Part shown: piece after piece, positions 3,385 through 44,998 of the stretch
How the letters are laid out: every line of letters starts with the position of its first letter
How positions within the stretch are numbered: the stretch's first letter is position 1
Origin: a virus
DNA length: 64,000 bases
Direction: 5' to 3' (one strand)
IMG/VR virus record: IMGVR_UViG_3300046782_000843
Notes under the pieces: model-generated
What the model was told of the DNA's origin: nothing
Database searches by the model: none
What the model saw: the letters and a program-made list of their open reading frames with translations, nothing else
Made by a program: the position numbers and the translations under genes

Positions 3385-3572
3385 CAGCGGCGGCTCAACG
3401 AGCGCGGCACGGCGGCAGGCTTGGGCGTCGCCATCCCCTTAGGCCCTTCCCACTTCTGCGAGCCGGGCTTGCCCTTGTTGATCGAGGCGTAGAAGACCCG
3501 CTCGCCCTTGTCGGCGCCGTAGGTCGACTGCATCGAGGACAGGACCTTGTTGCCCGAGGGCGTGAGCGGCAT
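3384..3572 (-). CDS. hypothetical small protein (62 aa)
   Basis: I prefer the internal ATG 3572 (MPLTPSGNKVLSSMQSTYGADKGERVFYASINKG) of track ORF 3384..3839. The upstream codons are Arg/Val-rich junk. Confidence 0.5.
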   Translation of the reverse strand: MPLTPSGNKVLSSMQSTYGADKGERVFYASINKGKPGSQKWEGPKGMATPKPAAVPRSLSRR

Positions 3573-3657
3573 GAGAGTTAGGGTCAGGGGAGACTGGGGG
3601 GCTGTCAAGAGCCCCCTGCCGGACGGGGCGCGAGGGGTCCCACACCCGGGTGAGGTG

Positions 3658-10855: not shown

Positions 10856-11332
10856 CTAGCCTCCCTTGTAGAACAGCTCGTCTTCGATCCGGCTGACCAC
10901 CGCGCGCATCTCCTCCTCGACCGACCGCCCGCGCTTGTGGGCGCGGTGCGCCAGCTCCGCGAGCTGCCCCGGCGTGAACGGGATGCGGATGTCGCCAATG
11001 CAGATCGAGGCCAGGCGACTGACGGCGCGGGTGAACTCGTCGGGGGTGCGGGTGCTGCCCACGCCGGTGTAGGCTTCGAGGTGGTTGCACTCAGTGCGAG
11101 AGAGGTGCAGGCCGGGCGTGAGGGTGGGCGCGTGGCGCACCAGCGACCAGGCGAGGCGCTGGATCTCGCTGACGACCGCGGCCGGTTCCCGCGGCCCTGC
11201 GGGGTTCGGTGGTGCGCTAGCACCGCCGGTGGGCGTGTCTTCACGCCCGGTTGCGTTCGTCCCCGAAGTAGAGGCTGCTCCCGGTGTCGGACTCAGTGAG
11301 GTCATAGGCATCATCGCGGATGGTTTCGCCAT
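10856..11332 (-). CDS. putative ribbon-helix-helix DNA-binding protein
   Basis: The C-terminal IRIPFTPGQLAELAHRAHKRGRSVEEEMRAVVSRI fits a strand-helix-helix pattern. The start is uncertain: ATG 11332 overlaps the terminase 3' end by 92 nt, and ATGs at 11314, 11311 and 11305 are alternatives. Confidence 0.5.
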   Translation of the reverse strand: MAKPSAMMPMTSLSPTPGAASTSGTNATGREDTPTGGASAPPNPAGPREPAAVVSEIQRLAWSLVRHAPTLTPGLHLSRTECNHLEAYTGVGSTRTPDEFTRAVSRLASICIGDIRIPFTPGQLAELAHRAHKRGRSVEEEMRAVVSRIEDELFYKGG

Positions 11333-13583
11333 AGTCGGGCTCCGTCTCGTCGGCTTCTTCGGCGGTCATGGGCGAGTTGCGGAAGTCAGGCCGCTCCACG
11401 CCCTTCTGCTGATTGAGGTGGTCGAGCGCGGCCTTGCGGCGGCGACGCTCGGCCACCGGTTCGACTTCGCCGCCTGCCATGCGCCAGGCGACGTAGTAGC
11501 CGATTGCTGAGGCCATCACCGCGTCGTCGTGCTGCCCGCGGGCGGCCTGGGCTTCGCCGATTGTCGACTGGGTGATGAAGTGGCGCAATTCCCCCCTGGT
11601 GATCGGGGAGTTGAGGATGAGGTCCGGCATCTGGGAGAGCGGGTCGAAGGTGGTGATCGCACCGTAGTAGCTGGCGAGGAGGAGCGGGCGCGTGCGCGGG
11701 CTGGTCATCCAGCCGATGCGGGTCGAGTAGCGCCGCTCGACGCTGGCGGCGTCGGCGTATTCCCAGACGTAGAAGTGGGCGTAGCCCAGGTGCAGTTGGA
11801 GGGTGTCCTGGGTGGCCAAGCCGTGGTTGTTGGTCTCGACCGCGGCCATCGCTTCCACCCCGTCGGCGTCGCAGTAGTAGCGGCCGATGGCGTCGACAAT
11901 GAAGGCCAGGGCCTTGGGGTCGAGCTTGTTGGTGCAGTACTGGGCGACCTGTTCGGCGGGCTCTTCGATCGTCGGCTGGCGGATCACATCGACGATCGAG
12001 TAGTCCTGGCCCAGGCCGTCAGAGACGTCGACCGCGATGATGTAGCGGCGGTGGCCGCGCAGGCGCGGGTATTCCCAGATGGAGAGGACCGACTGGCGCA
12101 GGTTGGGGAGCTGGGCGAGCTGCGCCTTGTCGAGGCGCCGGAAGCCGTAGCCGGGCGGGACCGGGTTGGTCTCGTGGGCGATGGCGGAGCCACGCAGGCC
12201 CGCGTGCGGCGAGAGCGGCGGGACCGGGCGTTTGGGCTGGATGTCCGGCGAGCCACTAGTCTCGGCATTAGTCGTGTCGGCCTCGGCCGCGTCGGCGGCC
12301 AGGGTGTCGCGGCGCAGCTTGGCGACGTCGAGCGCGGGCTCGACCACCCAGACGTCCTTGAGCTTGCGGATCGAGCCTGCCTCGTCGATCTGTTCGAGCT
12401 GTTCGAGGGTGAAGACCGAGCGGCCGGAGTACTGGAAGCACTCGTGGTCGTCGGCCGGATACTCCTTGAGGAACTTGTAGAGCTGCCCCTTCTTCTCGTA
12501 GAAGCGCCGGGTGGTTTCGTACCAGTAGAGCTGATTACGGTCGAGGGTGACCGTCTTGCCGCCATACCACTTGGGGCTGTCGCGCTCGCACTTGACGGCG
12601 TGCGCCAGGGTGGCGGAGCTGGGCGACCAGTCGAGCGGCGCGGGGAGCGAGTACTTGGAAGGCTCGGCCGACCAGGGGATGAAGATGTTGCGGAAGCGGC
12701 CCTCGCCCTCGCCGCTGGCCAGCCAGTGCGTGTGCCACCAGTCCCCGGCGTACTCGGCGGTGGCCTCGTAGAGGACCAGGGTGTCGGGGGCGTAGGGGAT
12801 GGCGGGCAGGAGCGCCGTGTCGAGCTGCTCGGGGTTCTCCCAGGTGGGGAGTTCGGAGATGTGGACGACGCTGAAGGTCTGGCCGCGGCCGATTGAGCCT
12901 TTGTTGCCTTCCTGGCCGGTGACCGAGGCCAGGGCGCCGCGGGTCGACTTGCCCCAGGCGGTCTTGAGGTAGCACTGGTTGGTGAGGCTGAGTTCGCGGT
13001 TCTTGGTGAAGTAGACCTTGCCGGGGCGCAGGAACCAGGGCAGCTGGTCGTAGAGGCGCACGACCATGCGAAAGAGGTAACCGGCTTGGTCCTCGACGTC
13101 GGCGCCGCACAGGGCGCGAACGTGGTGGCGGGTGACGACGCGGTGGAAGACGAGGGACTCGGCGAAGGTCGAGACCCCGAGCTGGCGCGCCTTGAGGATG
13201 TTGAAGAGCAGGCCGTCGGGGCTGCCGGACTGGACGTTGGCCAGCTCGTAGCGGGCGAGCTGGTCGAGCACCAGGCGCTGGGATTCCCAGAGCGGACAGA
13301 GGCGGCGCAGGCCGTGGCCCTCTTCGTCGATCCAGCAGAAGCGCTCGGCGAAGTAGGGGTAGTCGAAGATGACCCGCAGCTTGGTCGCCGAGACGAAGCG
13401 CTGCTCCTCGGAGTCGAGCGCGCGGGTCAGCGCCCCCTTCTCCTCGTCCCAGGCGCTAGTGACCAGGGCGGTCAGGCCCGCGGAGTCGTCGGGGGAGTAC
13501 CAGGGCAGCGGGCCCTGGAAGACCGAGGCGAAGCGGGTGGTGACTTCGGCTTCGTCCTCGGCGATGAGGTCGGGGTGATACAT
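11241..13583 (-). CDS. terL: terminase large subunit
   Basis: 780 aa. Walker A-like LKARQLGVST, Walker B-like SVVHISE, then nuclease-type acidic motifs (IIAVDVSDG, GQHDDAVMA), in the order typical of large terminases. Confidence 0.9.
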   Translation of the reverse strand: MYHPDLIAEDEAEVTTRFASVFQGPLPWYSPDDSAGLTALVTSAWDEEKGALTRALDSEEQRFVSATKLRVIFDYPYFAERFCWIDEEGHGLRRLCPLWESQRLVLDQLARYELANVQSGSPDGLLFNILKARQLGVSTFAESLVFHRVVTRHHVRALCGADVEDQAGYLFRMVVRLYDQLPWFLRPGKVYFTKNRELSLTNQCYLKTAWGKSTRGALASVTGQEGNKGSIGRGQTFSVVHISELPTWENPEQLDTALLPAIPYAPDTLVLYEATAEYAGDWWHTHWLASGEGEGRFRNIFIPWSAEPSKYSLPAPLDWSPSSATLAHAVKCERDSPKWYGGKTVTLDRNQLYWYETTRRFYEKKGQLYKFLKEYPADDHECFQYSGRSVFTLEQLEQIDEAGSIRKLKDVWVVEPALDVAKLRRDTLAADAAEADTTNAETSGSPDIQPKRPVPPLSPHAGLRGSAIAHETNPVPPGYGFRRLDKAQLAQLPNLRQSVLSIWEYPRLRGHRRYIIAVDVSDGLGQDYSIVDVIRQPTIEEPAEQVAQYCTNKLDPKALAFIVDAIGRYYCDADGVEAMAAVETNNHGLATQDTLQLHLGYAHFYVWEYADAASVERRYSTRIGWMTSPRTRPLLLASYYGAITTFDPLSQMPDLILNSPITRGELRHFITQSTIGEAQAARGQHDDAVMASAIGYYVAWRMAGGEVEPVAERRRRKAALDHLNQQKGVERPDFRNSPMTAEEADETEPDYGETIRDDAYDLTESDTGSSLYFGDERNRA

Positions 13584-13601: not shown

Positions 13602-14276
13602 CTAGTACACGACGCCGGGCGGCATGCCCATCTTGGTGAACCAGGGAGCGGTCTGCGGCTGGTCACCGCCTGCGGCCGCGGGGGCCTGCTCGGGGGCTGG
13701 GTAGGTAGCCGGAGCGGCCTGGCCGAGGCCGCCACCCTGCATGGGGGCGCGCCCGGTGAAGCCACCGCCGAAGGTGCCGGGAGGCCCGAAGCCGCCGCCG
13801 CCGAGGCGTCCGCGGGCGAAGCGCTGGCCAGGAGCCATCGGACCGGCGCCGCCCATCGCGGCACCAGGCGTGAGCGGGGCGGTCGCGCCGCCGGGCTGGA
13901 CCTGGGGCTGCGGCTGCATCGCGCCGACGAGCTGGGCGATGCCGGGGGCGATGCCGGGGGCGCTGGCGGGCTGGGGCTGGACACCAGGGGTGGGCGCGGT
14001 GCCTGCGGCGCCCATTGCGCCTTGGACGCCCGGCAGCGCGCCCTGGGCCGCGCCCGCGAGCTGCGGGGCGACCTGCTGGCCGAGCTGGCCGAGCTGTCCG
14101 GCGACCTGGTTCAGGCCGGGGCGTTTGGGTTGGAAGCCAGGGACGCCGCGGCCGTTGCCGCCCTTGCCGGTGCCGAAGCCGCCGACCTGCTGGCCCATGG
14201 TGCCCAGCTGGCCGACCTTCTGGCTGGCGGAGCCGGGGGCCGCGAGTCCTTGAAAGGCTGAAGCCATGGCGCCCAT
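13602..14276 (-). CDS. Gly/Gln/Pro-rich low-complexity protein
   Basis: 224 aa with GQLGQ and FGG repeats. Third codon positions are almost all G/C, and the stop is 18 nt before the terminase ATG, so I accept it as coding. Confidence 0.6.
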   Translation of the reverse strand: MGAMASAFQGLAAPGSASQKVGQLGTMGQQVGGFGTGKGGNGRGVPGFQPKRPGLNQVAGQLGQLGQQVAPQLAGAAQGALPGVQGAMGAAGTAPTPGVQPQPASAPGIAPGIAQLVGAMQPQPQVQPGGATAPLTPGAAMGGAGPMAPGQRFARGRLGGGGFGPPGTFGGGFTGRAPMQGGGLGQAAPATYPAPEQAPAAAGGDQPQTAPWFTKMGMPPGVVY

Positions 14277-14357: not shown

Positions 14358-14858
14358 TCAGTGTCCCTCCTGTAGTGAGCCGAGGCGGAGCGCCCCGGGG
14401 GCGTCGGCGACCTGGAGGACGAAGAGCCGACCCGCGGCGGGCGTGAAGCGGAAGCGTTCGAGGAGGGCCGCGACCTCGGGGGTGGCGTCTTCGGCGCCGC
14501 AGTAGACCTGCTGGATGTCGGCGTCCTTGAAGGACTGGAGGCCTGCGGTGAGGAGCTGGCGCAGGACGACCCCGCGGGTGCCGCCGGGGAGGGTGTCGTC
14601 GACCCACCAGGCGTCCCAGTGCATGGCGGTGAAGAGGGAGCAGGTGCCGACGATGACCGGTTCGCCGTCGAGGCCGACCTGCTCGACCACGAGGACGGCC
14701 CAGCAGCCGGGGTCGTCGGGGAGGCCGCGGGTGGCGAAGGGCTCGATCGGCAGCAGGCGGTCCCACTCGTCGGCGGGGAGGATACGGACGCGGGTGCCGC
14801 GGGGCTGAGGCGAGAAGGGGCTCAGCATCGCGGGGTCTTCGGGCTCGGGGCTGGTCAT
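14358..14858 (-). CDS. hypothetical protein
   Basis: 166 aa, globular-looking. ATGA overlap with the upstream gene. No confident motif. Confidence 0.65.
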   Translation of the reverse strand: MTSPEPEDPAMLSPFSPQPRGTRVRILPADEWDRLLPIEPFATRGLPDDPGCWAVLVVEQVGLDGEPVIVGTCSLFTAMHWDAWWVDDTLPGGTRGVVLRQLLTAGLQSFKDADIQQVYCGAEDATPEVAALLERFRFTPAAGRLFVLQVADAPGALRLGSLQEGH

Positions 14859-15619
14859 GGCGTCGCCTCGTGGGGAGCAGGAGTCTGGGGCGTGGGCGTG
14901 ACGTCGATGGTGGTGGCGGAGCCGCCGGGGGCGGCGGCGCGCACGCGGCCAGGGGTGAAGAGGAGGTCGCCGACCACTTGTTGCAGCTGTTCGAGGCTGC
15001 CGGGGGCGGTCGAGGCGAGGGCGGTCGACCCGGCGGCGATGGCGTTCTGCTGGACGATGACACCCGCGCGCGGCTCGATGAGGTGCGCGAGCTGGAGGGC
15101 GAGCTTCTGGCGCTCGACGTTGGGCTCGGTCATGACGGTGCCGGTGCCGCCGCAGTCAAGACAGGGTTTCGCGGGCGGGCTGTCGGGCGGTGGTGGCGGG
15201 GCGGCCTGGCAGCGGCAGGGGATGGGCTGCGGGGCGGCGCGGCGCATGACGTCGTCGACCACCGGCGGCAGCTGCGTGATGATGCGGTGCGCGGCGTCGA
15301 TGTGCGCCTGGACGAAGAGGGCGCGCTTGTAGCTGGCGAAGAGGTCGGCGACGGTGATCCCGGCGTAGATGCAGATCTTGCGCAGGGGCCAGGCCTGGTA
15401 GGCCGGGTCGAGCAGGCAGTTGATGACCTTGTCGACGTGGCCGTCGGTGTCGGCGACCGCGAGGGTGGCCATGAGCTTCTGGCGCCCGCCGACCGCGCGG
15501 GTGAAGAGGTCGACCGCGGCGTCCGAGAGGTCGAGTTCCTGGGACGTCAGCGCGGTGGACTGTCGTGGGGCGCGTGGGGCGACCTTGGCGACCGGCGAGC
15601 GCTTCTGCGGCTTGGGCAT
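14855..15619 (-). CDS. DNA-binding/zinc-finger protein, candidate small terminase subunit
   Basis: 254 aa with a basic N-terminus, an HTH-like LRKICIYAGITVADLFASYKR segment, and CLDCGGTG (CxxCxGxG zinc finger). It lies upstream of terL. The TerS role is speculative. Confidence 0.65.
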   Translation of the reverse strand: MPKPQKRSPVAKVAPRAPRQSTALTSQELDLSDAAVDLFTRAVGGRQKLMATLAVADTDGHVDKVINCLLDPAYQAWPLRKICIYAGITVADLFASYKRALFVQAHIDAAHRIITQLPPVVDDVMRRAAPQPIPCRCQAAPPPPPDSPPAKPCLDCGGTGTVMTEPNVERQKLALQLAHLIEPRAGVIVQQNAIAAGSTALASTAPGSLEQLQQVVGDLLFTPGRVRAAAPGGSATTIDVTPTPQTPAPHEATP

Positions 15620-15890: not shown

Positions 15891-16258
15891 CGGCGGGCCT
15901 CCGCGAGGCGAGCGAGGTCGTCTTCGCGGCTGGTCAGGCGCTCGGCGAGGTCGCGGGTGCGCTCGTCGCCCAGGTGCAGCATGATCTCCTCCTCGTCGGG
16001 GGTGTGGCCGGTGTCGGCTTCGGTGCGGGTGACGTAGGCGAGGGCGGCCGCGAGGTCGTCGGGGTCGACGTGGCTGAGGCCGGTGTCGCGGCGGATGCGG
16101 GCGCGGGTGGCCGTGGAGTCGTCGAGGGGGAGCGCGGGGGCGAAGCGGTCGGTCAGGCGGTCGAGGGCGGCGGCCTGGCGGTCGAGGGTGGCCGCGATGC
16201 GGTCGAGGGCGGCCACGGTGCGCCGGAGCAGGAGCGCGGAGGTGAGTGCCTTGAACAT
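15887..16258 (-). CDS. hypothetical protein, first gene of leftward operon
   Basis: 123 aa with helical, Ala/Arg/Asp-rich but non-repetitive composition. Confidence 0.55.
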   Translation of the reverse strand: MFKALTSALLLRRTVAALDRIAATLDRQAAALDRLTDRFAPALPLDDSTATRARIRRDTGLSHVDPDDLAAALAYVTRTEADTGHTPDEEEIMLHLGDERTRDLAERLTSREDDLARLAEARR

Positions 16259-16714
16259 GAGGGACCAGCGTCCACGCAGAGCTGCAGGCTTGTCTAGTCC
16301 CCCCTGCGCCTGGAGGCGTGACAGGGGAGGTCACAAGGCAAGGCGAGACGACCAGATGTGGTCGTGTGGGCTTGCCCAAGGGGAAAAATTCTAGTGAAAA
16401 AAATATAGCTGGAGTCGGGTGCGCCTGCTCCTAGGAGCTGGGGCCGGGTGCCCGCGGACAATGGCTGAGCTACAACCTCTGCCGTGGCCGCGGTCGAGCT
16501 ACAAGCCCAGCCGTAGGAACGGATGAGCTGCTGCCCGGCTGAGCTGGTGTGCTGCTGGGCTGGTGTGCGGCTGGGCTGGGGGGCTGGCGGGCCAGGACGC
16601 CTCGCGCGGGCGCCTCGTCGAGGGCGGCGCCGCGGCCGTTCGAGCGCCTGGCGAGGCGAAAGTGAGGCCAGATCCGTAGCTCAGCAGGGCTAAGTCCTTT
16701 GTTTGCAACGACTT

Positions 16715-16728
16715 GCTAGTTAACATAA
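16715..16728 (+). repeat. AT-rich 14-mer GCTAGTTAACATAA, copy 1
   Basis: Identical to 40905-40918. The 11-mer GTTAACATAAC also occurs at 40830-40840. TTGCAA (16703-16708) lies upstream. Confidence 0.85.
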
Positions 16729-17044
16729 TAACTCTTATCAGACACTGAGGCTGTCGCGGCTCGCGGCAAGCGGCGTGCCAGGGCGTCGAGGCGGGCCAGG
16801 GCCTGGTCGCGCGCGTCGAGGCGCCGCCGACCGGTCGAGCTGGAACGGTCGAGGTTGAAGCCCGGCTGTGGCTGTGGTCGAGGTTGAAGCTCGGCTGTGA
16901 CTACGGCTGAGCTGGCTACGGTCGAGCTGGCCGCTACGGCTGAGCTGGCGCCTGGCCACGGGCCGCCTGCTGAGCTGGGCTTCGATACACCGCCCTCCAC
17001 GCCGCCCTCGAACGCCCGCCAAGCGACTCGGCCGTCAACCTGGC

Positions 17045-17071
17045 CAGCTATGGCAACGGTTGCCATAGCTG
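17045..17071. promoter_or_regulatory. 27-bp perfect palindrome CAGCTATGGCAAC-G-GTTGCCATAGCTG
   Basis: 13-bp arms around a single central G, read directly from the sequence. Confidence 0.8.
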
Positions 17072-17203
17072 CACACCAAGCTGAGCTGGCCAGCCAGCTG
17101 AACCCTGCCAGCCCAGCCGCAAGGCCAGACGGGGCGAAAGCAGGCGAAACCACGCGGAAACACTGAGCGAATACCGCGATATTACAATCTGTAATGCGTT
17201 TTG

Positions 17204-17265
17204 CACAGGCACGTCCACAGGTTATGCACAGGCTAAGTGAGGCAAAAAGGTCACTTTTCCACAGG
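17204..17265 (+). promoter_or_regulatory. phased CACAGG boxes
   Basis: CACAGG starts at 17204, 17216, 17227 and 17260 (steps of 12, 11 and 33 nt), with a fifth at 17453. An AAGTGA-n10-TCACTT inverted repeat lies between them. Confidence 0.5.
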
Positions 17266-17457
17266 CCCTAGGAGCCACGAGGATGCCTCAGGAGCGACGC
17301 CGCCGGTTTTCCGCGGGGTTCGGTCGACCGAGCCTGCGTTCGTGGCGCCAGCGCGTTTTCGGGGGTCTCGAGTTTTGCCTCACTTACGGTGAGATGGTCG
17401 AGGTATGTGGTCGAGCTGTGAGTGCTGGGCGTCTGGACCTATGCTTGTCGCGCACAG

Positions 17458-17496
17458 GCATATGTATTGACAGCCACTTGCATATGGTAGTAAGGT
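17458..17496 (+). promoter_or_regulatory. early promoter P1 with dual GCATATG boxes
   Basis: GCATATGT (17458-17465), TTGACA (17467-17472), GCATATGG (17480-17487), TAAGGT (17491-17496). The spacer is 18 nt. Confidence 0.55.
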
Positions 17497-17580
17497 AGTG
17501 TCCTGGTCTCGACGCGGCGGGCACGACGCGCGCCGCGGGACACGAGCCGCCAGCACAGTCGGCACAGAGGAGCACACGCC

Positions 17581-17892
17581 ATGCAAGCCATCTCGACCAA
17601 GTATCACGGTCCGACCAACCACCGCGGCGCCCGGATCAAGGCGTCCTGCGAGGCCGGGAGCCTGACCGTCGGCTACGACTACAGCCTGGGCAGCGAGGCG
17701 AACCACATCCGGGCCATCCGCGCCCTGATCGCCAAGCTCGGCTGGTTCCACGACGCGAGCCGGGGCGACCGGTATGGCGCCTGGCACGTCGGCGGCCTGG
17801 GCCACGGCTACGTCGCCGTCTGCACCGGGGAGTACAGCGTCGTCGAGGCGCCCGGCAACGTCGCGGCCTACCTGGCGGGGGTGCGCTCGTGA
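17581..17892 (+). CDS. hypothetical early protein
   Basis: 103 aa (MQAISTKYHGPTNHRGARIKA). CA-rich leader with GAGGAG before the ATG. Confidence 0.75.
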   Translation: MQAISTKYHGPTNHRGARIKASCEAGSLTVGYDYSLGSEANHIRAIRALIAKLGWFHDASRGDRYGAWHVGGLGHGYVAVCTGEYSVVEAPGNVAAYLAGVRS

Positions 17893-20036: not shown

Positions 20037-20108
20037 GTGTACGAAACGCCCTGGCCACCCGCGAGCCAGGGCGTCGGGCGACCAAACGCCCCTGACGAGG
20101 CACCGACC

Positions 20109-20384
20109 ATGATGATTCCGACGATCCACAGCAACGGCACCGGCCGCAGCAGCCTGCTCGGCGAGCTGGAAGCGGCGCACAGCGCAGTCATCGCGGCGGT
20201 CGACGCCCTGCGCCAGGTCACCGTCCACGGCCGCGACTACTACGTCCAGCCGGGCGGCGAGAGCGCCTACCGCGTCGCCCGGGCGGAGATGGACGCGCGC
20301 CTGGAGGCCCTGCGCCAGGTGGGCGAGGACCTGCTCGTGATGCACCGGGGCGTCGTCGAGCAGGGCAGCAACGGCGGCCGGTAG
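20109..20384 (+). CDS. hypothetical early protein
   Basis: 91 aa from ATG 20109 (MMIPTIHSNGTG). GTG 20037 is an alternative start. Confidence 0.6.
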   Translation: MMIPTIHSNGTGRSSLLGELEAAHSAVIAAVDALRQVTVHGRDYYVQPGGESAYRVARAEMDARLEALRQVGEDLLVMHRGVVEQGSNGGR

Positions 20385-21561: not shown

Positions 21562-21600
21562 GCATATGCTTGACACCTTCGGGCATATGCATGGTAGACT
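21562..21600 (+). promoter_or_regulatory. early promoter P3 with dual GCATATGC boxes
   Basis: GCATATGC (21562-21569), TTGACA (21570-21575), GCATATGC (21583-21590), TGG-TAGACT (21592-21600). The spacer is 19 nt, and the leader to ATG 21652 is about 45 nt. Confidence 0.65.
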
Positions 21601-21651
21601 CTAGTCCTCGACCGCGGCACCGACACAGCCGCCCACAGCAGGAGACACGAC

Positions 21652-21771
21652 ATGGACCGCACAGACGCCGCCCGCAGCCTCGCCAAGGTGTTCGCCTACC
21701 TCGCCTGCAACAAGCCGGACGCCGCCCGCGCTGCCGCTGAGCCGCTGATCGCCTGGCTGCGCAGCCTGTAA
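21652..21771 (+). CDS. hypothetical 39-aa protein (below ORF-track cutoff)
   Basis: MDRTDAARSLAKVFAYLACNKPDAARAAAEPLIAWLRSL. Leader CAGGAGACACGAC before the ATG. Confidence 0.5.
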   Translation: MDRTDAARSLAKVFAYLACNKPDAARAAAEPLIAWLRSL

Positions 21772-21807: not shown

Positions 21808-22263
21808 ATGACGCACCACAGCTCGTCCCCGCAGCCCATCCCGCTCTATCCCGTCGTCTTGACCCACGCCGCCACGCGCGCCTGGCTGGCGGGCCACGGC
21901 CTGGACTACGTCCGGCTCCCGAAGGGTCTCGGCGACCCCTACATCGTCAGCGTGCCGAGCGGCGAGCACTTCACGATCGAGGCGCTGATCACCGGCGGGT
22001 TCAGGGTCGAGCGCCACCAGGCCACCACGGGCCAGGCGGTGCAGGCACCGAGCGCCGCCCCCGCCGACTTCACCGTCGAGAACCACGGCAGCGTCTGGCT
22101 GCTCACGCCCGAGACCACCGACGCGCGCAACTGGGTCGACGAGAACGTCGCCCTGGAGCCCTGGCAGTGGCTCGGCCGCTCGTTCGCCGTCGAGCCGCGG
22201 CTGCTCGACCAGCTCGTCGAAGGCATCCAGGCCGAGGGGCTCTCGGTCGAGGCGGCATCATGA
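21808..22263 (+). CDS. hypothetical early protein
   Basis: 151 aa. Leader AGAGGAGACACGACC before the ATG. Confidence 0.75.
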   Translation: MTHHSSSPQPIPLYPVVLTHAATRAWLAGHGLDYVRLPKGLGDPYIVSVPSGEHFTIEALITGGFRVERHQATTGQAVQAPSAAPADFTVENHGSVWLLTPETTDARNWVDENVALEPWQWLGRSFAVEPRLLDQLVEGIQAEGLSVEAAS

Positions 22264-26534: not shown

Positions 26535-27521
26535 TCAGTGCAGGATGACCCGCGCGTAGACGCCGTGCCGCACCTTGACGATCCGGTCCCGTTCAAGGAG
26601 CGTCTCCAGCACCCGGTAGAGCGTGGTCTTGCTGACCGGGATGCCCCCCGCCAGCTCGCGCAGCGCGGCCAGCTCGATCTCGCTGCCGTCCTCGGGGAAG
26701 AGCGCCAGCACGCGCGTGCAGTTGCCCTGGTCCGCGCCGCTGTAGGGCACGAACAGCCCCTGCTCGTCGCGCTCCAAGTAGAACGTCTCCGCTGGGCTGG
26801 TGTGGGGATGCCAGAGGAAGGCGTAGTACGGCTTGGCGATCTCCTCGGGGCTGGCCAGGTACATCTGGGTGTCGGCGAACCCGGCGATGGCGGTTGAGCC
26901 CAGCAGCTGGTCCTGCAGGCGCAGGTAGCGCTCGCGCTTGTCGGCCTTGAGCTTGGCCGAGTGCGCCGTGGCGAGGATCGTCCAGGTGCGGTCGCGCAGC
27001 ATGGCGCGGATCTCGTGGCAGGCGACGGCGCACGAATCGTAATCATTCAAATTGCCGCCCAAGAACAAGCCGATCGGGTCGACCAGGAGGAGGCTGTGCT
27101 TGGGCAGCGCCAGGCGGTCGGCCATCTCCATGAGCCTGGCCGTGCGCTCGAACTTGCGGCGCAAGGTCTTCGGGTCGAAGTGCCGGTCGTCGACCATCGC
27201 GTAGTGGCGGATGTCCGGGTAGCCTGCCCGGTGGAACCACTCGCCCGCGCCACGGCTCCAGCTGCGGTCGGCGGCGACGATGCCGATCGCCTCGACCGGG
27301 TTGGGTTGATGGCCGAAGATCGGCAGGCCGTGCTTGAGCGCGTGCATCATGCCAGCCAGCAGCGCCGTCTTGCCGACGTTGGGCCCGCCTGCGAGGAGTG
27401 AGATCCCACCCGCCGGGATGATCCTGGGGATGGGGTCGATGCGCTCGTCAGGGTAGTCGTCGGTGAGGAGAATGGTCGGGGCAGACAGGGCTTGACTTCC
27501 AGCGCGACGTGTGGCAGACAT
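26535..27521 (-). CDS. RepA/AAA_25-like RecA-fold ATPase with C-terminal winged helix
   Basis: 328 aa. Walker A is GGPNVGKT and Walker B is SLLLVDPIG. The C-terminal LYRVLETLLERDRIVKV is wHTH-like. AGGAGG RBS. Confidence 0.7.
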   Translation of the reverse strand: MSATRRAGSQALSAPTILLTDDYPDERIDPIPRIIPAGGISLLAGGPNVGKTALLAGMMHALKHGLPIFGHQPNPVEAIGIVAADRSWSRGAGEWFHRAGYPDIRHYAMVDDRHFDPKTLRRKFERTARLMEMADRLALPKHSLLLVDPIGLFLGGNLNDYDSCAVACHEIRAMLRDRTWTILATAHSAKLKADKRERYLRLQDQLLGSTAIAGFADTQMYLASPEEIAKPYYAFLWHPHTSPAETFYLERDEQGLFVPYSGADQGNCTRVLALFPEDGSEIELAALRELAGGIPVSKTTLYRVLETLLERDRIVKVRHGVYARVILH

Positions 27522-35826: not shown

Positions 35827-37269
35827 ATGCAGCGCCAGGCCAGCCCCCCTGACCCTGCGTTGACGTTCGGGTGGCTGCCTGCCCCGCCGGTGGTGTCACC
35901 GCGCCGGTCGCGCGTGGTAGTGCCCGAGCGGTTGGTACCGGCGATGAGTGTCACGCCCGCGTCCACAGGGGTGTCGGACGTCGGGTTGTGGTCGTCGCCG
36001 GTGCCGACCTATACCTACCTCGCCGGAGCGGCGGGGAGTGGCAAGACCTACAAGACCCGGGAGTGGGCGGCGCAGGAGAAGGGCCTGCTGCTCTGCGCCA
36101 CCACCGGCATCGCCGCGATCAACGCGGGCGGCGAGACCATCAACTCGGTCCTGGGCTACTTCGACACTGACTCGATGCGGCAGAAGTACCAGGACGGGTT
36201 TCTCAGTGCGCGCCTGGGCAGGCTGTGGAAGGTCGGCGTGCGGCGGCTCGTCCTCGACGAGGTCTCGATGCTCGACGCCGACCAGCTGACCTATCTGGTC
36301 AAGGCGATCGAGGAGGTCAACGGGCGGGGCTATGTGATCAGCAAGTGGGTCGACGACGGTGAGACGCCGCAGCCCGCCATGGGGTTGACGTTGGTCGGTG
36401 ACTTCCTGCAGCTGGCGCCGGTCAAGGCCGAGTATGCGTTCACCTCGCCGGAGTGGCGGCCGTTCGCGGAGTCACTAATAACCCTGACGGAGATCCGCCG
36501 CCAGGCCGACGCCGACTTCATCCAGATGCTGCGGGCGGCGCGGGCGGCCCAGGGGGAGCAGGTCGCGGACTACTTCGTCAGTCGCGGGCTGATCGAGCAG
36601 GAGACCGACAACCACTTCGAGGGGCCGACCATCGTCGCCAGGAACGAGCACGTCGACCGGCATAACTACCTGCGCATGGCCGCGGTGCAGGGCAAGGAAG
36701 TGCGCTTCGACTCCAGCCGCTGGGGCAAGCAGCGCGGCGAGTGGACCTCGCAGGTCCCCCCGGAGCTGGTGCTGAAGATCGGGGCGCTGGTGATGATCCT
36801 CAACAACTATCGCGACCCCGACACCGGGCAGCTGGTGTATGTCAACGGCGACCTGGGCACGCTGGTCGACGCGACCGACACGACCGCCTGGGTGCAGCTG
36901 CAGCGCACCGGCGGCGCGGTCGAGGTCAGCCGGGTGCGGCGTGAACTGAAGATTCCCGCCGATGGGGCTAGAAGGAAAGAGCTGCTGGCGAAGGGCGAAG
37001 GCGACAAGGTCGACGGCAAGTGGGAGATCGTGGGCGACGTGGTGTACATGCCGCTGCGGGTGGCATATGCATCCACCGTGCATAAGTCGCAGGGGCTGAG
37101 CCTGGACAAGGTGCAGGTCAACATCAGAGATGCGTTCTTTGGCACGCCGGGGATGTTGTATGTGGCGCTGAGCCGGGCGCGGACCGCGGAGGGGCTGCGG
37201 CTGGTCGGGAGCCCGAAGGTGCTGATCGAGCGGTGCGTGAGTGACCCGAAGCTGAGGGCGTGGCTATGA
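35827..37269 (+). CDS. PIF1/RecD-like superfamily 1 helicase
   Basis: Motifs are GAAGSGKT, LVLDEVSM, VGDFLQLAPV, EIRRQADADF, VHKSQGLSL and YVALSRAR. Confidence 0.85.
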   Translation: MQRQASPPDPALTFGWLPAPPVVSPRRSRVVVPERLVPAMSVTPASTGVSDVGLWSSPVPTYTYLAGAAGSGKTYKTREWAAQEKGLLLCATTGIAAINAGGETINSVLGYFDTDSMRQKYQDGFLSARLGRLWKVGVRRLVLDEVSMLDADQLTYLVKAIEEVNGRGYVISKWVDDGETPQPAMGLTLVGDFLQLAPVKAEYAFTSPEWRPFAESLITLTEIRRQADADFIQMLRAARAAQGEQVADYFVSRGLIEQETDNHFEGPTIVARNEHVDRHNYLRMAAVQGKEVRFDSSRWGKQRGEWTSQVPPELVLKIGALVMILNNYRDPDTGQLVYVNGDLGTLVDATDTTAWVQLQRTGGAVEVSRVRRELKIPADGARRKELLAKGEGDKVDGKWEIVGDVVYMPLRVAYASTVHKSQGLSLDKVQVNIRDAFFGTPGMLYVALSRARTAEGLRLVGSPKVLIERCVSDPKLRAWL

Positions 37270-40660: not shown

Positions 40661-40868
40661 GCCGGACATCCTGGCCCGCATCCGGGACTGGCGAGAGGAC
40701 GACAGCCAGGGCTACTTCGAGGTGATCGAGCTGATCTGCGACGCCGAGGATGAGATCGTGCGGCTCCGAGAGATGGTTACACCAGGCTCAACCCTTGCAG
40801 GAGAAAGCCGCCAGGAGGAAGTAACCGAAGTTAACATAACTACTCCAGCCTGTGGAAAACTGGAGTAA
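40653..40868 (+). CDS. hypothetical acidic small protein
   Basis: 71 aa. The GTG start overlaps the RHH gene by 8 nt. Confidence 0.5.
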   Translation: MAKPDILARIRDWREDDSQGYFEVIELICDAEDEIVRLREMVTPGSTLAGESRQEEVTEVNITTPACGKLE

Positions 40869-40904
40869 AAACGTGAGATTAACCAATGTTTACCGAGTCC
40901 AACC

Positions 40905-40918
40905 GCTAGTTAACATAA
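40905..40918 (+). repeat. AT-rich 14-mer GCTAGTTAACATAA, copy 2
   Basis: Identical to 16715-16728. TTTACC (40889-40894) lies upstream, and a related GTTAACATAAC occurs at 40830-40840. Confidence 0.85.
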
Positions 40919-41024
40919 CATCCATTACAAGGCACGATCTCCCCTCTTCGACGTTTACACCCCCCGCAATTCCTGGTTATTTTCCACACTTCCCCGACTT
41001 AAGTCAACGCCGGAGGTGACTGTT

Positions 41025-41318
41025 ATGAGACGCATCGACGCCGACGACGCCCACGCCGCTCTCGACGCCCCGATCGCCCGCCCCGCCCCCAGGGAGGAGC
41101 AGGACTGGGACGCCTTCCTGCACGAGATCAACGACCTGCGCACGAGCGGGGACTACGACTGGGCAGATGAAACGCTCGGGTTCATCGCCGAGACCGTGGA
41201 GAAGACCGAGCGGGTCACGGTGGGGCAGCGCACCGCGGTCGCGAACATCACCAACGCGCGGCGGGAGCGCCCCTGGAGCCGTCGCGCAGGCTCGCGGCGC
41301 TACGAGGGCTACCGATGA
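41025..41318 (+). CDS. hypothetical protein
   Basis: 97 aa from ATG 41025 (GGAGGTG RBS). Confidence 0.65.
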   Translation: MRRIDADDAHAALDAPIARPAPREEQDWDAFLHEINDLRTSGDYDWADETLGFIAETVEKTERVTVGQRTAVANITNARRERPWSRRAGSRRYEGYR

Positions 41319-41569: not shown

Positions 41570-41987
41570 GCCCGACGACGACTTCGACGACGATGCGCCA
41601 GACCTCGACCTGCGGGGGATGGTCCGCTCGCCTGACCACGACACCTCGGTCGCTGCGGCGGTCCACCACGTCTCCGGCCGCACCAAGCTGCAGGAGCGCA
41701 TCTACCAGATCCTCCACGACAGCGGCGGCTTGATGGACGAGCAGCTCTGGCTACTGCCGGAGTTCGCCCACTACGACCAGTCGACCGTCCGCAAGCGGCG
41801 CAGCGAGCTGTATCAGGCCGGGCTCGTCGTCAAGATCGGTGTGGGCGTCAACTCGCGCGGCTTCAAGATGACCATCTGGGGCGTCGCGCCCCCACGGCCG
41901 CCGGAGCCGCCTCCTGCAGCGCCAAAACCACGCCGCAGCCTGTACCCAACCCCGCCGACGGTGACGCCGAAGAGGAAGCGGGTATGA
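41562..41987 (+). CDS. winged-helix DNA-binding protein
   Basis: 141 aa. RIYQILHDSGGLMDEQL...STVRKRRSELYQAGLVVKIG is MarR-like. Confidence 0.6.
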   Translation: MTEPDDDFDDDAPDLDLRGMVRSPDHDTSVAAAVHHVSGRTKLQERIYQILHDSGGLMDEQLWLLPEFAHYDQSTVRKRRSELYQAGLVVKIGVGVNSRGFKMTIWGVAPPRPPEPPPAAPKPRRSLYPTPPTVTPKRKRV

Positions 41988-44900
41988 GCCGACTCGCCCA
42001 CCCCGACGGCTGCCGCGGCTGCACCCTCGACGAGCGCGGCGACGGCTTCGCGCCCGCCGATGGTCCCTCCGACGCCTGGCTGCTCCTGGTCGGCGAGGCG
42101 CTCGGGATGACCGAGGCGCTGACCGGCCGCCCCTTCGTCGGCGACGCGGGCGGGATGCTCCAGCGCCTGCTCAATCTCCTCGGCTGGAGCCGCGACGCCA
42201 TCCGCATCCACAACACCATCAGCTGCAGGCCGCCGGGCGACTGGTTCGACGAGAGAGCGCCCTGGTACTACTCGGCGATGGGGCACTGCCCGTACCTCCG
42301 CGACACGCTGGCTGAAGGCCACCAGGTGGTCGTGCCGATGGGCCTGACCGCCCTGCGGCGGGTGATGCACCTGGAGCACAAGAAGAAGCTCAAGGTACAG
42401 GACTTCCACGGCGCGGTGCTGCGCGACCCGACCGACCGCTACTGGGTCGTGCCGACCTTCCACCCGTCGTTCTTGCAGCGCGGCGCCACCAACATGATCG
42501 GCACCGTGCTGTGGGACCTCAGGAGGGCGGAGGAGGCGCGGGACCACGGGCGGGTGGCGAGCGCCCACACGCTGGTGGTCGACCCGAGCGTCGAGTGGTT
42601 CCGCGCCTGGGTCGACACGGTGGTCGCCGCCAGAACCCAAGACCCTGGCGCCTATCCGCTATCGAGCGACGTCGAGACGCCGGACAAGGCGGGCGGCCGG
42701 GACGAGGGGGAGATCACCGCCGACGATGTGAGCTACCAGCTGCTGCGGCACAACGTCTCCTGCCACACCGACGAAGGCGTCACGGTGCCCCACGCCGGGC
42801 CGTACCTGGAGGAACTCCGGCGGCTGTATGCCTCCCCCGGAAGCATATGGATGTGGAACCGCGAGTACGACTTCGGGCGCCAGGTCCACGCCGCGATGAT
42901 GCGCGAGGAAGACTCGCACCGGGCGGTCGACCTGATGTGGCTGTGGCACTTCCTACAGAGCGATGTCCCCCGCGGGCTCGGGTTTGTCGCGCCTTTCTAC
43001 AGCAACTATGGGCCCTGGAAACACCTGGCGGATGAGGACCCGGCGACCTACGGCGCCGCCGACGGCCTGCAGACGCACCGGGTCGGGTTCGGGATCTACC
43101 ACGACCTGCAGCGCCAGGGCCAGCTCACGATGGCCCTGCGTCACACCCACCAGCTCCTGAGCGAGGTGCTGCGGCCTGCGCAGTTGGTCGGGCTGAAGGT
43201 CGACCGCCCGCAGCTGCTCGTCTTCAAGCAGGAGCTGATCGACAAGGCGCGCGAGCGGATGGACACCCTGAGCGCGTGCGTGCCGGACTCCCTCGCCGCC
43301 CTCACCCCGAAGGAGGGGCTGAAGCGCCCGCCCGCGGCCGACCTGCTGCATGTGAAAGCGACCGCATTCACCCGGAAGGGCGTGCCCCGCAAGGGGAAGC
43401 CCACGTCCGAGATCAAACAGGAGCTATATGCGCGAGCACAAGTCATCGAACGCCTCGTCATCAAAGAAGTCCTTGTCTGCCGCAGCTGCGGAGCTACAGA
43501 CCTTGATCGACGCCACAAGTGTGCTCTACCTGCACCTGGAGGTCTTCCGGCTGCAGCTCCTCAACTCGACCTGGCTGTGGCGAGCGTCAGCCGGTGGTTT
43601 TGGAAGGAGCCATTCAACCCTGACTCCGTCCCGCAGGTCCTCAGTTACATCAAGCACCGCAAGCACAAGCCCGGGCGGGCGAAAAAGTCGGCGAGCGAGG
43701 AAAGCGAAAGCACCAACCGCGAAACCCTAGAGCGGCTAGCGCGGACGACCGGCGACCGCTTCTATGGGACGCTGCTCGACTACCGCGCGATCGGGAAGGT
43801 CAAAGGGACCTACGTGGAAGGCACCGAGCGGCGACTCGATGCTGACGACCGGCTGCACCCGGTGCCGACCTTCAAGCCGAGCACCATGCGACTCAGCTAC
43901 ACCAATCCAAACATAACCAACGTGGTTGCAGACAAGGGTGGCGCACAAGGCTTGGCCGCGGGCTTCAGGAGGTGCATTGTCGCGGGGCCAGGCTGCCGCC
44001 TGCTGGAGGTGGACTTCAGCGCGATCGAAGCGGTCGAGACTGGGTGGTGCGCCAGCGATGCGGAGTATTACCGCCTCGCCAAACTGGGCGTCCATGCCGC
44101 CCTGGTCACGCACGTCCTGCGTCAGCCCTACGACCCCGGCGAGAGTGACGCGGCGCTCAAGGCGCTCTTCGCGCGGGTGAAGGACGAGCACCAGGACGTC
44201 TACGAGCCCGCCAAGCGCTACATCCACGGGCGAGCATATGGCTTGACGGTGGCCGGGATGCAGCTGCAGTTTCCGCATCTTTTCAAGACCCAGGCCGTCG
44301 CCCAGCAATACGCGCGCATCTTCGAGGGGATGGCGCCGGGGGTGGCCCGCTGGCAGGGGAACACACAGCTGCGTGCCAGCCGCCAGCATTATCTCGGTGG
44401 CGCCGGTGACCATCCCTTTGCCTATAAGCACTGGTTCTGGTCCGTCTACCAATACAAGCGACTGACCGCGACGCAGTACTACCGCCTGGTCGCGAAGCAC
44501 CAGCGCGAGGGGAGCGAGCCGCCGGTCCTGACGATCAACGGGCAGCACTTCCGCATCAGTTTAGGGGAAGACGGCAAGCGGGTGTTAGCGTTCTACCCCC
44601 AGAGCATCGCCGCGGGGATCCTGAAGGAAGCGCTGCTGCGGCTGTTCGCGGACAAGGACAGCCCGAGTTACATCGGCGATGTCTACTTCGGGAAGACGCC
44701 GCTGCGCGCCCCGATCCACGACTCACTGCTGCTGGAGATCCCGCTGCGGGTGTGGGACCGGGTGGTCGAGATCGTGTGTATGGAGATGCAGCGGCCGGTC
44801 GTGCAGCAGCCGCTGCCCGAGAGCTGGGGGGCGCGCTTCGGCGAGTATGTCGCGATCGGGGTCGCGGCGAAGGCGGGGCAGAACTGGGCCGCGATGGAGA

Positions 44901-44998
44901 AGATCGCGGTGCCAGGGTATGAGAGTGACTGGGAGGCGCAGCCAGTCGAGGCTGAGGACGAGGAGGACTGGGGCGACCTGGCGAGAGTGATCGCATAA
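41984..44998 (+). CDS. DNA polymerase, family A, with N-terminal UDG family-4-like domain and 3'-5' exonuclease
   Basis: The UDG4-like part has CRGC, GEALG...GRPFVGDAG and FHPSF. The exonuclease part has SSDVETP, WNREYDF and YGAADG. The polymerase part has RLHPVPTFKPSTMRLSYTNPNITNV, LLEVDFSAIEAV, AKRYIHGRAYG and IHDSLLLE. Confidence 0.9.
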   Translation: MSRLAHPDGCRGCTLDERGDGFAPADGPSDAWLLLVGEALGMTEALTGRPFVGDAGGMLQRLLNLLGWSRDAIRIHNTISCRPPGDWFDERAPWYYSAMGHCPYLRDTLAEGHQVVVPMGLTALRRVMHLEHKKKLKVQDFHGAVLRDPTDRYWVVPTFHPSFLQRGATNMIGTVLWDLRRAEEARDHGRVASAHTLVVDPSVEWFRAWVDTVVAARTQDPGAYPLSSDVETPDKAGGRDEGEITADDVSYQLLRHNVSCHTDEGVTVPHAGPYLEELRRLYASPGSIWMWNREYDFGRQVHAAMMREEDSHRAVDLMWLWHFLQSDVPRGLGFVAPFYSNYGPWKHLADEDPATYGAADGLQTHRVGFGIYHDLQRQGQLTMALRHTHQLLSEVLRPAQLVGLKVDRPQLLVFKQELIDKARERMDTLSACVPDSLAALTPKEGLKRPPAADLLHVKATAFTRKGVPRKGKPTSEIKQELYARAQVIERLVIKEVLVCRSCGATDLDRRHKCALPAPGGLPAAAPQLDLAVASVSRWFWKEPFNPDSVPQVLSYIKHRKHKPGRAKKSASEESESTNRETLERLARTTGDRFYGTLLDYRAIGKVKGTYVEGTERRLDADDRLHPVPTFKPSTMRLSYTNPNITNVVADKGGAQGLAAGFRRCIVAGPGCRLLEVDFSAIEAVETGWCASDAEYYRLAKLGVHAALVTHVLRQPYDPGESDAALKALFARVKDEHQDVYEPAKRYIHGRAYGLTVAGMQLQFPHLFKTQAVAQQYARIFEGMAPGVARWQGNTQLRASRQHYLGGAGDHPFAYKHWFWSVYQYKRLTATQYYRLVAKHQREGSEPPVLTINGQHFRISLGEDGKRVLAFYPQSIAAGILKEALLRLFADKDSPSYIGDVYFGKTPLRAPIHDSLLLEIPLRVWDRVVEIVCMEMQRPVVQQPLPESWGARFGEYVAIGVAAKAGQNWAAMEKIAVPGYESDWEAQPVEAEDEEDWGDLARVIA

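Follow-up and report, generated by a model that had tools for sequence, protein, structure and literature searches.

Introduction

Iteron-type theta origins of replication are known from lambda ori and from the plasmid origins P1 oriR, RK2 oriV and pSC101. Packaging (pac) sites have been described for SPP1 (pacL/pacC/pacR) and for P1, where hexamer repeats are combined with an IHF site, and in the T7 concatemer junction the short-repeat arrays SRL and SRR flank the terminal repeat. The origin of the lactococcal phage c2 is said to lie in a non-coding region between divergent early and late gene clusters. Promoters for leaderless mRNAs, with a -10 element about 7 nucleotides (nt) before the start codon, are common in Actinobacteria. 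Here we analyze a 64,000-nt stretch of viral DNA (IMG/VR record IMGVR_UViG_3300046782_000843, hereafter the window) and in particular its gap at 16259-17580, which judged by its sequence is a real composite control hub where a leftward late gene block and a rightward early gene block diverge. As to its exact function, we infer, with somewhat less than even confidence, that the hub is an iteron-type replication origin. Two of its elements, an invariant two-part core and a class of leaderless late promoters, appear to be undescribed, and a literature search for the conserved strings returned nothing relevant.

The gap between the late and early genes

Genes in the window run leftward from 16258 and rightward from 17581, and the two arms meet near 46.7 kb. 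Since the gene directions part at the gap, it was taken as the divergence point of the late (packaging and structural) and early blocks. It is the sole non-coding gap of at least 350 nt in the 64 kb, as seen from the lack of periodicity in GC content at the third codon position (GC3). Between roughly 16260 and 17500 the GC content is similar in each of the three codon phases (0.5-0.8), and GC3 in the flanking genes is 0.9-1.0. The original prediction that 1.3 kb is free of any credible open reading frame (ORF) was thereby borne out. The same holds for the 145-amino acid (aa) ORF at 16716-17153(-), which the prediction had singled out as a possible real gene: its codon-position GC is flat (0.70/0.66/0.67), and it has no Pfam match and no tblastn match in 57 related loci. 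An Rfam scan of the gap gave nothing at the gathering threshold or at E <= 1. Relatives carry genes for ~390-aa DUF932-like proteins or AAA ATPases opposite the late operon; a decayed gene in the gap was considered and set aside, as tblastn of 11 such genes against the window detected no remnant.

The window, with a base composition of about 69% GC, is judged to be most of an uncultured ~70-kb soil phage, because relatives of its large terminase (TerL) occur on 69-72-kb contigs and no match was found in phage collections or in bacterial and archaeal genomes. TerL (11241-13583 (-)) is a distant large terminase that matches the broad family phrog_2 best (E = 5.7e-12, PHROG search). The search with TerL gave loci at 47-83% identity, 47 of them from IMG/VR and 37 from JGI/ENA metagenomes, and several of their contigs, 69-72 kb long, are rated complete with direct terminal repeats by IMG/VR. 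The phage collection searched with the window DNA gave no DNA match, and among 185,579 genomes of bacteria and archaea there was neither a TerL relative nor a plasmid or prophage relative. Relatives close enough for base-level comparison were absent from IMG/VR and the JGI metagenomes, where the top TerL identity was 83%, and a metagenome search with p123, the 123-aa product of the first late gene, returned no match.

The core was compared across 19 unique genomes (32 loci) with TerL identities of 47-83%. Nucleotide similarity across the gap is almost nil, and only the segment 16381-16422 matches. The architecture of the gap is kept despite this scant similarity. On the late strand the usual order in relatives is an A element, GTTAACATAA-N6-TTATCAGAC, with B and C boxes; a direct-repeat array; CATTGTCCGCG; a GC-rich spacer of ~31 nt; GCACCCGACnTCAGC; two tandem T-rich units; and GGGG(G/A)NCTAGACA, with the start codon of the p123 gene ~35 nt further on. 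Every hub element is present even in the most remote relative (L094), whose TerL is 47% identical.

An invariant two-part core

The core of the hub lies on the (-) strand. Its first part, box 1 (16453..16463), is CATTGTCCGCG, which is identical in all 32 loci, occurs once per genome and is always on the late-gene strand. The distal half (16381..16422) starts with box 2, GCACCCGACTCCAGC (16408-16422), and continues with the T-rich units CAGCTATATTTTTTT and CACTAGAATTTTT. In the 19-genome alignment the invariant CA of box 2 stands at a distance from box 1 that differs by no more than a few bases, and in nearly all of these genomes box 2 is followed by the two tandem T-rich units. These units are 11-15 nt long, as in L035, which has CACCGATCTTTTTT twice, and in L012, which has CAGCGATTTTT twice. 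The T-rich units resemble the GATCTnTTnTTTT 13-mers of oriC-type unwinding elements. They correspond to the predicted AT-rich island, which we place at 16378-16417; with a GC content of 0.35 it is the fourth most AT-rich 40-mer of the window.

Box 1 has no dyad symmetry, and RNAalifold on the core of 19 sequences predicted zero pairs. Because it is invariant in 19 genomes with near-fixed spacing and has no RNA consensus fold, the core looks like a DNA-level protein site, to go by the alignment, rather than an RNA element. Readings of the conserved boxes as sigma-54, sigma-28, CtrA, IHF or GANTC sites were rejected by eye against the alignment. AGCT was also considered as a group-wide core sequence; it is three-fold enriched in the hub of the window and inconsistent in the relatives.

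In 19 of 19 genomes, including the one with 47% TerL identity, the core lies upstream of the p123, p61, p254 and TerL operon and in the same orientation. The comparison indicates that it is nevertheless separate from the late promoter and that adjacency is unnecessary. In one genome (L012:7308-8367) an insertion of 1.1 kb, made up of two antisense genes and a hairpin behind them, parts the T-tracts from the late promoter. In L020, L025 and L043 a stretch of 3.4-4.4 kb with ORFs on both strands separates the core and the first late gene. In two further genomes (L015:7807-8673 and L024:2494-3252) an inserted PD-(D/E)XK endonuclease gene (PF11645) separates the core from the first late gene. Both endonuclease genes are headed by a late-promoter box of their own and look like mobile endonuclease cargo.

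Repeat arrays on the early side of the core

The original prediction listed eight GAGCTGG cores in the gap. All eight were recovered (16435-17089, all (+)), but the 7-mer is common in the genome, with 70 copies in the window where 19.6 are expected. As a Glu-Leu codon pair it turns up all over the genome, which makes the bare GAGCTGG a poor marker. The longer word GGYYGAGCT is much more specific: the window has 14 copies (4.7 expected), 8 of which lie within 16463-17417, all (+), and a looser 13-nt pattern is present in 14 (+) copies within 959 nt where ~0.7 would be expected.

The units form two arrays and a third mini-array, all (+). Array 1 (16462..16592) consists of four GGYYGAGCT-type units starting at 16462, 16491, 16520 and 16536 (spacings 29, 29 and 16 nt), followed by a degenerate GCTGG run. 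Array 2 (16782..17090) has eight units, starting at 16832, 16846, 16875, 16904, 16919, 16937, 16967 and 17078 (spacings 14, 29, 29, 15, 18, 30 and 111 nt). In the mini-array (17395..17420) two iterons stand 13 nt apart, ~45 nt upstream of the -35 element of the early promoter P1 described below. The triple tandem noted earlier at 16901-16949 was found as described, and of the duplicated 24-mer the duplication is real, but the repeated unit measures 29 nt, in two copies (16847-16904) that are 86% identical.

Local alignment of 16411-16655 with 16782-17047 gave a score of 81, and shuffled sequences scored 31.5 +/- 4.6. On this alignment, array 2 is a diverged tandem duplicate of array 1, the duplicated module being ~250 nt. 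The duplication adds ~370 nt and covers much of the excess over the ~0.6-1.1-kb gaps of the relatives (L001, L095). Two arrays are found in this phage only, the relatives having one. Defined as at least four copies of a 9-mer, one mismatch being allowed, in the 300 nt that adjoin box 1 on its early side, an array is present in 14 of the 19 genomes, and only 8.7% of random coding windows reach that count. Two genomes (L032 and L035) have the core and no array. The repeated word varies by lineage: many have CAGCTGG variants, others GCGCGCCAG or GCGCCTGGC.

The GGYYGAGCT unit is shared by the window with L095 only, which is also the sole relative with the three small early genes of the window. 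The N-terminal 60 residues of p254 are no more similar between the window and L095 than between the window and relatives with other repeats. Because iterons and early genes are shared and the p254 N-terminus does not track the repeats, this single lineage pair points, weakly, to an early protein as the putative reader of the repeats. None of these three early genes (20037-20384, 21598-21771 and 21808-22263), which go together with the iteron type, encodes a recognisable DNA-binding domain. The domains of p254 were also checked for variation in step with the iterons; the N-terminus gave no signal and the C-terminus a weak one, and the idea was dropped. Two adjacent iteron-like GGCCGAGCT units were also observed at 14075-14100, inside a variable gene directly upstream of TerL.

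Six of the GAGCTGG cores (16837-17089) are spaced by 72, 15, 18, 30 and 111 nt, all multiples of three. The frame they define is interrupted by a stop codon and has no GC3 signal. The spacing may be a trace of array growth, or chance (about 0.4%). It could also be the trace of former coding, and arrays in one orientation occur in centromeres such as sopC. That the hub is the partition centromere of a plasmid-like prophage, or that a hidden gene or non-coding RNA runs across the repeats, is nevertheless exceedingly improbable. No ParA/ParB-like match was found in the ~40 proteins scanned, in a scan that was not exhaustive, and the lack of TerL relatives in bacterial and archaeal genomes also speaks against a centromere. 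The flat codon-phase GC and the absence of ORF homologues argue against a gene, and the empty Rfam scan and the lack of a consensus RNA structure against an RNA.

DnaA-like boxes, promoter cassette and early promoter

Three exact matches to the DnaA-box consensus TTWTNCACA are located on the (+) strand at 17199, 17222 and 17255 (17199..17263), together with a partial GTCCACAGG; their extended consensus is TTWTSCACAGGC. These are the CACAGG boxes of the original prediction, which were indeed present. TTWTNCACA occurs five times in the window where 0.22 copies are expected, and L095 has two boxes at the homologous place. Over the 19 genomes the motif is 22 times denser in the kilobase flanking box 1 on the early side than elsewhere, though just five of these genomes have any. 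The two motif classes of the hub recur in the window upstream of the polymerase operon (40780-41025), where two GTTAACATAA elements (40830, 40909) are combined with two TTTTCCACA boxes, at 40851 (-) and 40980 (+), one of them in the loop of a CTCCAG/CTGGAG hairpin.

The early promoter P1 (17458..17496, (+)) was read by eye as TTGACA (17467-17472), an 18-nt spacer with GCATATG boxes, and TAAGGT (17491-17496). The predicted promoter is thus readable at 17467-17496, but the strict promoter scan did not call it. P1 is predicted to drive the first early gene, which encodes a 103-aa protein matching phrog_3199 and starts with ATG at 17581 after a GAGGAG Shine-Dalgarno sequence. In some unrelated phages of very different GC content (L048, L051, L053 and L056) a phrog_3199 homologue likewise comes first after 0.9-2.7 kb without detected homologues, opposite a distant TerL or other leftward genes. 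Such distant phages with the first early gene were set aside as comparators, as their GC content differs.

The strict scan for sigma-70 promoters gave a single match in the gap, at 16702-16729(+), where TTTGCA and CATAAT stand 16 nt apart in sequence formed by the B and A elements. These make up a cassette at 16690..16745 (+) in which a hairpin-like CTAAGTCC...GACTTGCTAG is followed by the sigma-70-like promoter, read there as TTGCAA (-35, 16703-16708), a 15-nt spacer and CATAAT (-10, 16724-16729), and then by TTATCAGAC. The A element GTTAACATAA-N6-TTATCAGAC is conserved in at least 12 relatives, in either orientation and 130-640 nt from box 1. In this phage the cassette is directed toward the early genes, and relative to the flanking genes it is inverted compared with the closest relative, L001. 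Across the group the A element points toward the late genes in ~8 lineages and toward the early genes in 4. Between array 1 and the cassette lies element C1, a CTTTCGCCTCGCC box (16646..16668, (-)) that is also found on the late-gene strand in L003 and L005.

Further inverted repeats lie toward P1. The 27-bp palindrome of the original prediction was recovered at 17045..17071 as AGCTATGGCAAC/GTTGCCATAGCT with perfect 12-bp arms (z = -3.6); it was not seen in L095. At 17124..17195 ((+), GC 0.40) the GGCGAAAG boxes (C2) are followed by the AT-rich palindrome ATTACA-ATC-TGTAAT. The fold is not significant, and the order in L095 is homologous. A perfect 14-nt inverted repeat, TAAGTGAGGCAAAA/TTTTGCCTCACTTA (17234-17247 and 17373-17386), encloses 125 nt between the DnaA-like boxes and the P1-side iterons; as RNA its fold is not significant (z = -1.5).

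Predicted leaderless late promoters

At the other end of the gap, P_late1 (16259..16304, (-)) directly precedes the gene for p123. It consists of a G-run and TAGACA (-35, 16291-16296), an 18-nt spacer, the -10-like GACGCT (16267-16272) and 8 nt up to the ATG at 16258. A second site, P_late2 (3573..3615, (-)), has GGGGGCTC-TTGACA, 17 nt, GACCCT and 7 nt before the ATG at 3572. It implies a short leaderless gene with the protein start MPLTPSGNK in place of the 151-aa ORF of the mechanical list. The box GGGGRNCTAGACA precedes the p123 homologue in ~30 unique relatives, with conserved spacer length and distance to the start codon, and in many of them a second copy is found several kb downstream, before a gene with the protein start MPLT. 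Both sites in the relatives have a -35-like T(A/T)GACA, 17-18 nt, and a hexamer ending in CT (GACGCT, GACCCT, TTCGCT or GTAGCT), with an ATG or GTG start codon 7-8 nt past the hexamer and no Shine-Dalgarno sequence. Spacing of the -35 and -10 elements and the start codon at ~7 nt are those of leaderless sigma-70-type promoters; the -10 hexamer is atypical. Since a Shine-Dalgarno sequence is lacking before the first late gene, P_late1 and P_late2 are predicted to be late promoters yielding leaderless mRNAs, with transcription starting at the start codon. The leaderless late promoter had been missed by the original prediction, as had the invariant core, the origin of the arrays from a single duplicated module, and the match of the CACAGG boxes to the DnaA consensus.

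Between the T-tracts and P_late1 lies an inverted repeat (16337..16376) with 18-nt arms and a 4-nt loop, with a DNA fold of -16.8 kcal/mol (z = -5.6). This hairpin is not conserved: in L004 the late promoter directly follows the T-tracts.

An alternative is that the hub is a transcriptional switch only. The arrays and CACAGG boxes would then be operators for early regulators that time P1, the reversible B-A cassette and the late promoter, and the core would be a promoter or activator site. Consistent with such a role, the promoter elements of the group, for example the late -35 box and GTTAACATAA-N6-TTATCAGAC, are near-invariant, iterons stand just upstream of P1, and CACAGG boxes recur together with GTTAACATAA at 40.8-41.0 kb before the polymerase operon, as regulatory motifs would. 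In most relatives an A-11/T-7 hexamer can also be read just before the T-tract. However, this -10-like match is of low information and falls in a T-run, and the core has no -35 element. What weakens this explanation is that each genome has the core just once and that the core is separable from the late promoter, from which it can be 1-4 kb away. The genes inserted downstream of the core in L015 and L024 bring their own copy of the late promoter, and P_late2 has no such core element. Transcription control as the sole function is therefore considered unlikely.

A putative iteron-type replication origin

The reading we prefer, tentatively and with confidence a little below even, is that core, arrays and early-side elements form an iteron-type replication origin. 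It is suggested by the one-orientation iterons, the T-rich units resembling oriC 13-mers, the DnaA-box matches and the flanking promoters. Where at least three direct repeats in the same orientation are expected of such an origin, the hub has 14 (+) units, and arrays are present in 14 of 19 relatives. The expected adjacent AT-rich element of tandem units is also found at the sequence level (GC 0.35). In the proposed mechanism a phage DNA-binding protein, probably an early one, would oligomerise on the iterons, and host DnaA may assist at the DnaA-like boxes. The adjacent strand-asymmetric T-rich tandem units would then melt, and the phage helicase and family-A DNA polymerase would be loaded there, with transcription from the flanking promoters aiding the opening. 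The iterons beside P1 could allow the same protein to exert feedback on early transcription.

Several observations weigh against an origin at this position. No initiator gene was identified and no replication gene adjoins the hub: the family-A DNA polymerase fused to a UDG domain (41984-44998), the PIF1/RecD-like helicase (35827-37269) and the AAA_25 ATPase (26535-27521, (-)) are 9-25 kb away. For nearly all other window proteins scanned, Pfam, PHROG and NCBIfam gave no match. Another gap that is AT-rich and bears repeats, at 26.3-26.5 kb beside the AAA_25 ATPase, is a candidate rival origin. The iteron spacing is irregular (13-30 nt, mostly 29) instead of the classical ~21-22 nt, and the repeats lack helical phasing. 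Only 5 of 19 genomes have DnaA-like boxes at all, and these boxes share an extended consensus (CACAGGC) and recur before the polymerase operon; they may be operators of a phage regulator. The GC skew is confounded by gene direction. Furthermore, the core stays with the packaging operon while neighbouring early genes reshuffle, which fits a packaging signal better.

Packaging and genome ends

The last point leads to the possibility, which we regard as real if rather doubtful, that the hub is a headful pac region. The protein p254 would bind the array and bent T-tract DNA, and TerL would make its first cut in or near the core and package toward the late genes. The fixed place and orientation of the core before the packaging operon in all 19 genomes argue for this, as do the irregular repeats and A/T tracts beside a unique segment, an arrangement like that of the pac sites in SPP1 and P1. 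Among solved structures, TerL has relatives only in the nuclease domains of T4 and RB49 gp17 (E = 5.6e-5). Assembly of the ~70-kb relatives yields circles whose break points are arbitrary, as for permuted genomes. The conserved 254-aa protein p254 (14855-15619 (-)) is encoded directly upstream of TerL in L006, L008, L013 and L015, and is a small terminase (TerS) candidate with gene order as the sole basis. Its structural model suggests that a bundle of helices at the N-terminus leads into a long helix, as is typical of small terminases, and that helices are again present at the C-terminus. Between these parts a CxxC...CxxCxGxG motif, DnaJ-zinc-finger-like and unusual for a TerS, was observed.

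Against p254 as the TerS, searches of Pfam, PHROGs, NCBIfam and PDB profiles gave no significant match, nor did Foldseek with its AlphaFold model against PDB and BFVD; family and structure searches with p123 were likewise without a significant match. The failure of the p254 N-terminus to follow the iteron type and the presence of a core without an array in L032 and L035 also speak against packaging, and T4-type terminases need little sequence specificity. A pac region would moreover leave the DnaA-consensus boxes and oriC-like T-rich units without a role.

A cos site, or the fixed terminal-repeat junction of a linear genome, is very improbable. The 11-mer of box 1 would in that case be the end sequence, with the arrays comparable to the T7 short-repeat arrays. 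Cutting at the hub would indeed give two converging arms, as in several terminal-repeat podoviruses; an invariant 11-mer near terminase genes recalls the conserved cohesive ends of many actinophage clusters; and in this phage two arrays flank a unique middle segment. However, that duplication is confined to this phage, and box 1 lacks symmetry. Of the related contigs broken near the hub none ends at box 1 or the A element, their ends being 385-2162 nt away, although assemblies are indirect evidence. What appears to be one and the same phage was assembled twice (70,146 and 70,150 nt), with a different break point each time, and while IMG/VR classes 4 of 5 checked ~70-kb relatives as having direct terminal repeats, their break points differ. 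Cos site, fixed terminal-repeat junction, centromere, gene and RNA are improbable even when taken together. Of the functions offered in the original prediction, an origin and a headful pac site are thus consistent with the data, and cos and centromere are not supported.

A combined scheme is conceivable but quite unlikely. The core would be an undescribed replication or packaging signal of a large group of uncultured ~70-kb soil phages, possibly infecting Acidobacteriota, that is read by a conserved machine while the arrays set lineage specificity, and the B-A cassette would be a true invertible switch that sends transcription through this signal to the late or the early genes.

A possible lead to the host

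A DNA-pattern scan for prophages gave 45 matches, of which one alone looks genuine. It is a remnant of a related phage at the end of a 242,931-nt contig (L130:1-2931) from an Acidobacteriota metagenome-assembled genome. The remnant contains the invariant core with T-tract, a late-promoter-like box GGGGGATCTAGACG and the truncated start of the first late gene, and adjoins a frameshifted small serine recombinase gene. No homologue of the recombinase was found in the phages. This sequence is possibly a lead to Acidobacteriota as the host phylum. A weak match of TerL to phages of Tunturiibacter, an Acidobacterium, was likewise observed.

Comparison with known systems

Almost all proteins of this phage group are without family match, which leaves conserved DNA signals among the few routes into its biology. 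The core is an invariant DNA landmark for the control point of packaging or replication in every member, and the late-promoter class can be used for late-gene annotation across the group. Which protein reads the lineage-specific repeats is a testable pairing problem. If the hub is an origin or a pac site, it would provide a cis element for vectors or for the study of packaging specificity in phages of poorly tractable soil bacteria.

In comparison with the packaging systems, the hub resembles the SPP1 and P1 pac sites in that it heads the terminase operon and has irregular short repeats and A/T tracts beside a unique conserved segment. It differs in position, being 0.6-4 kb upstream of the candidate small terminase gene instead of overlapping it. 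As with SRL and SRR of T7, two related short direct-repeat arrays flank a unique segment beside the first promoters, but the relatives have one array, there is no sign of fixed ends, and TerL resembles the T4 and not the T7 type. The late promoters share with known leaderless promoters a -10-like hexamer 7-8 nt before ATG or GTG and the lack of a Shine-Dalgarno sequence. Their -10 hexamers are GACGCT, GACCCT or TTCGCT in contrast to TANNNT, and a conserved G-run precedes the -35 element.

Similar to the c2 origin, the hub is a large non-coding region with promoters and repeats where early and late genes diverge. There is no sequence similarity, however, host and phage type are unrelated, and the priming transcript is reportedly a feature of c2. 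With the iteron-type theta origins the hub has in common direct repeats in one orientation beside strand-asymmetric AT-rich tandem units of 11-15 nt, nearby DnaA-consensus boxes, and promoter-side iterons that suggest feedback control. In contrast to these origins, it neither overlaps nor adjoins an initiator gene, its repeats are spaced by 13-30 nt instead of ~22 nt, an invariant two-part box stands between iterons and AT-rich units, and the region is linked to the packaging operon instead of replication genes. Control regions rich in repeats are a well-known feature of the boundary of early and late genes in phages, so the kind of element is an ordinary one, and the hub is a variant of this familiar kind.

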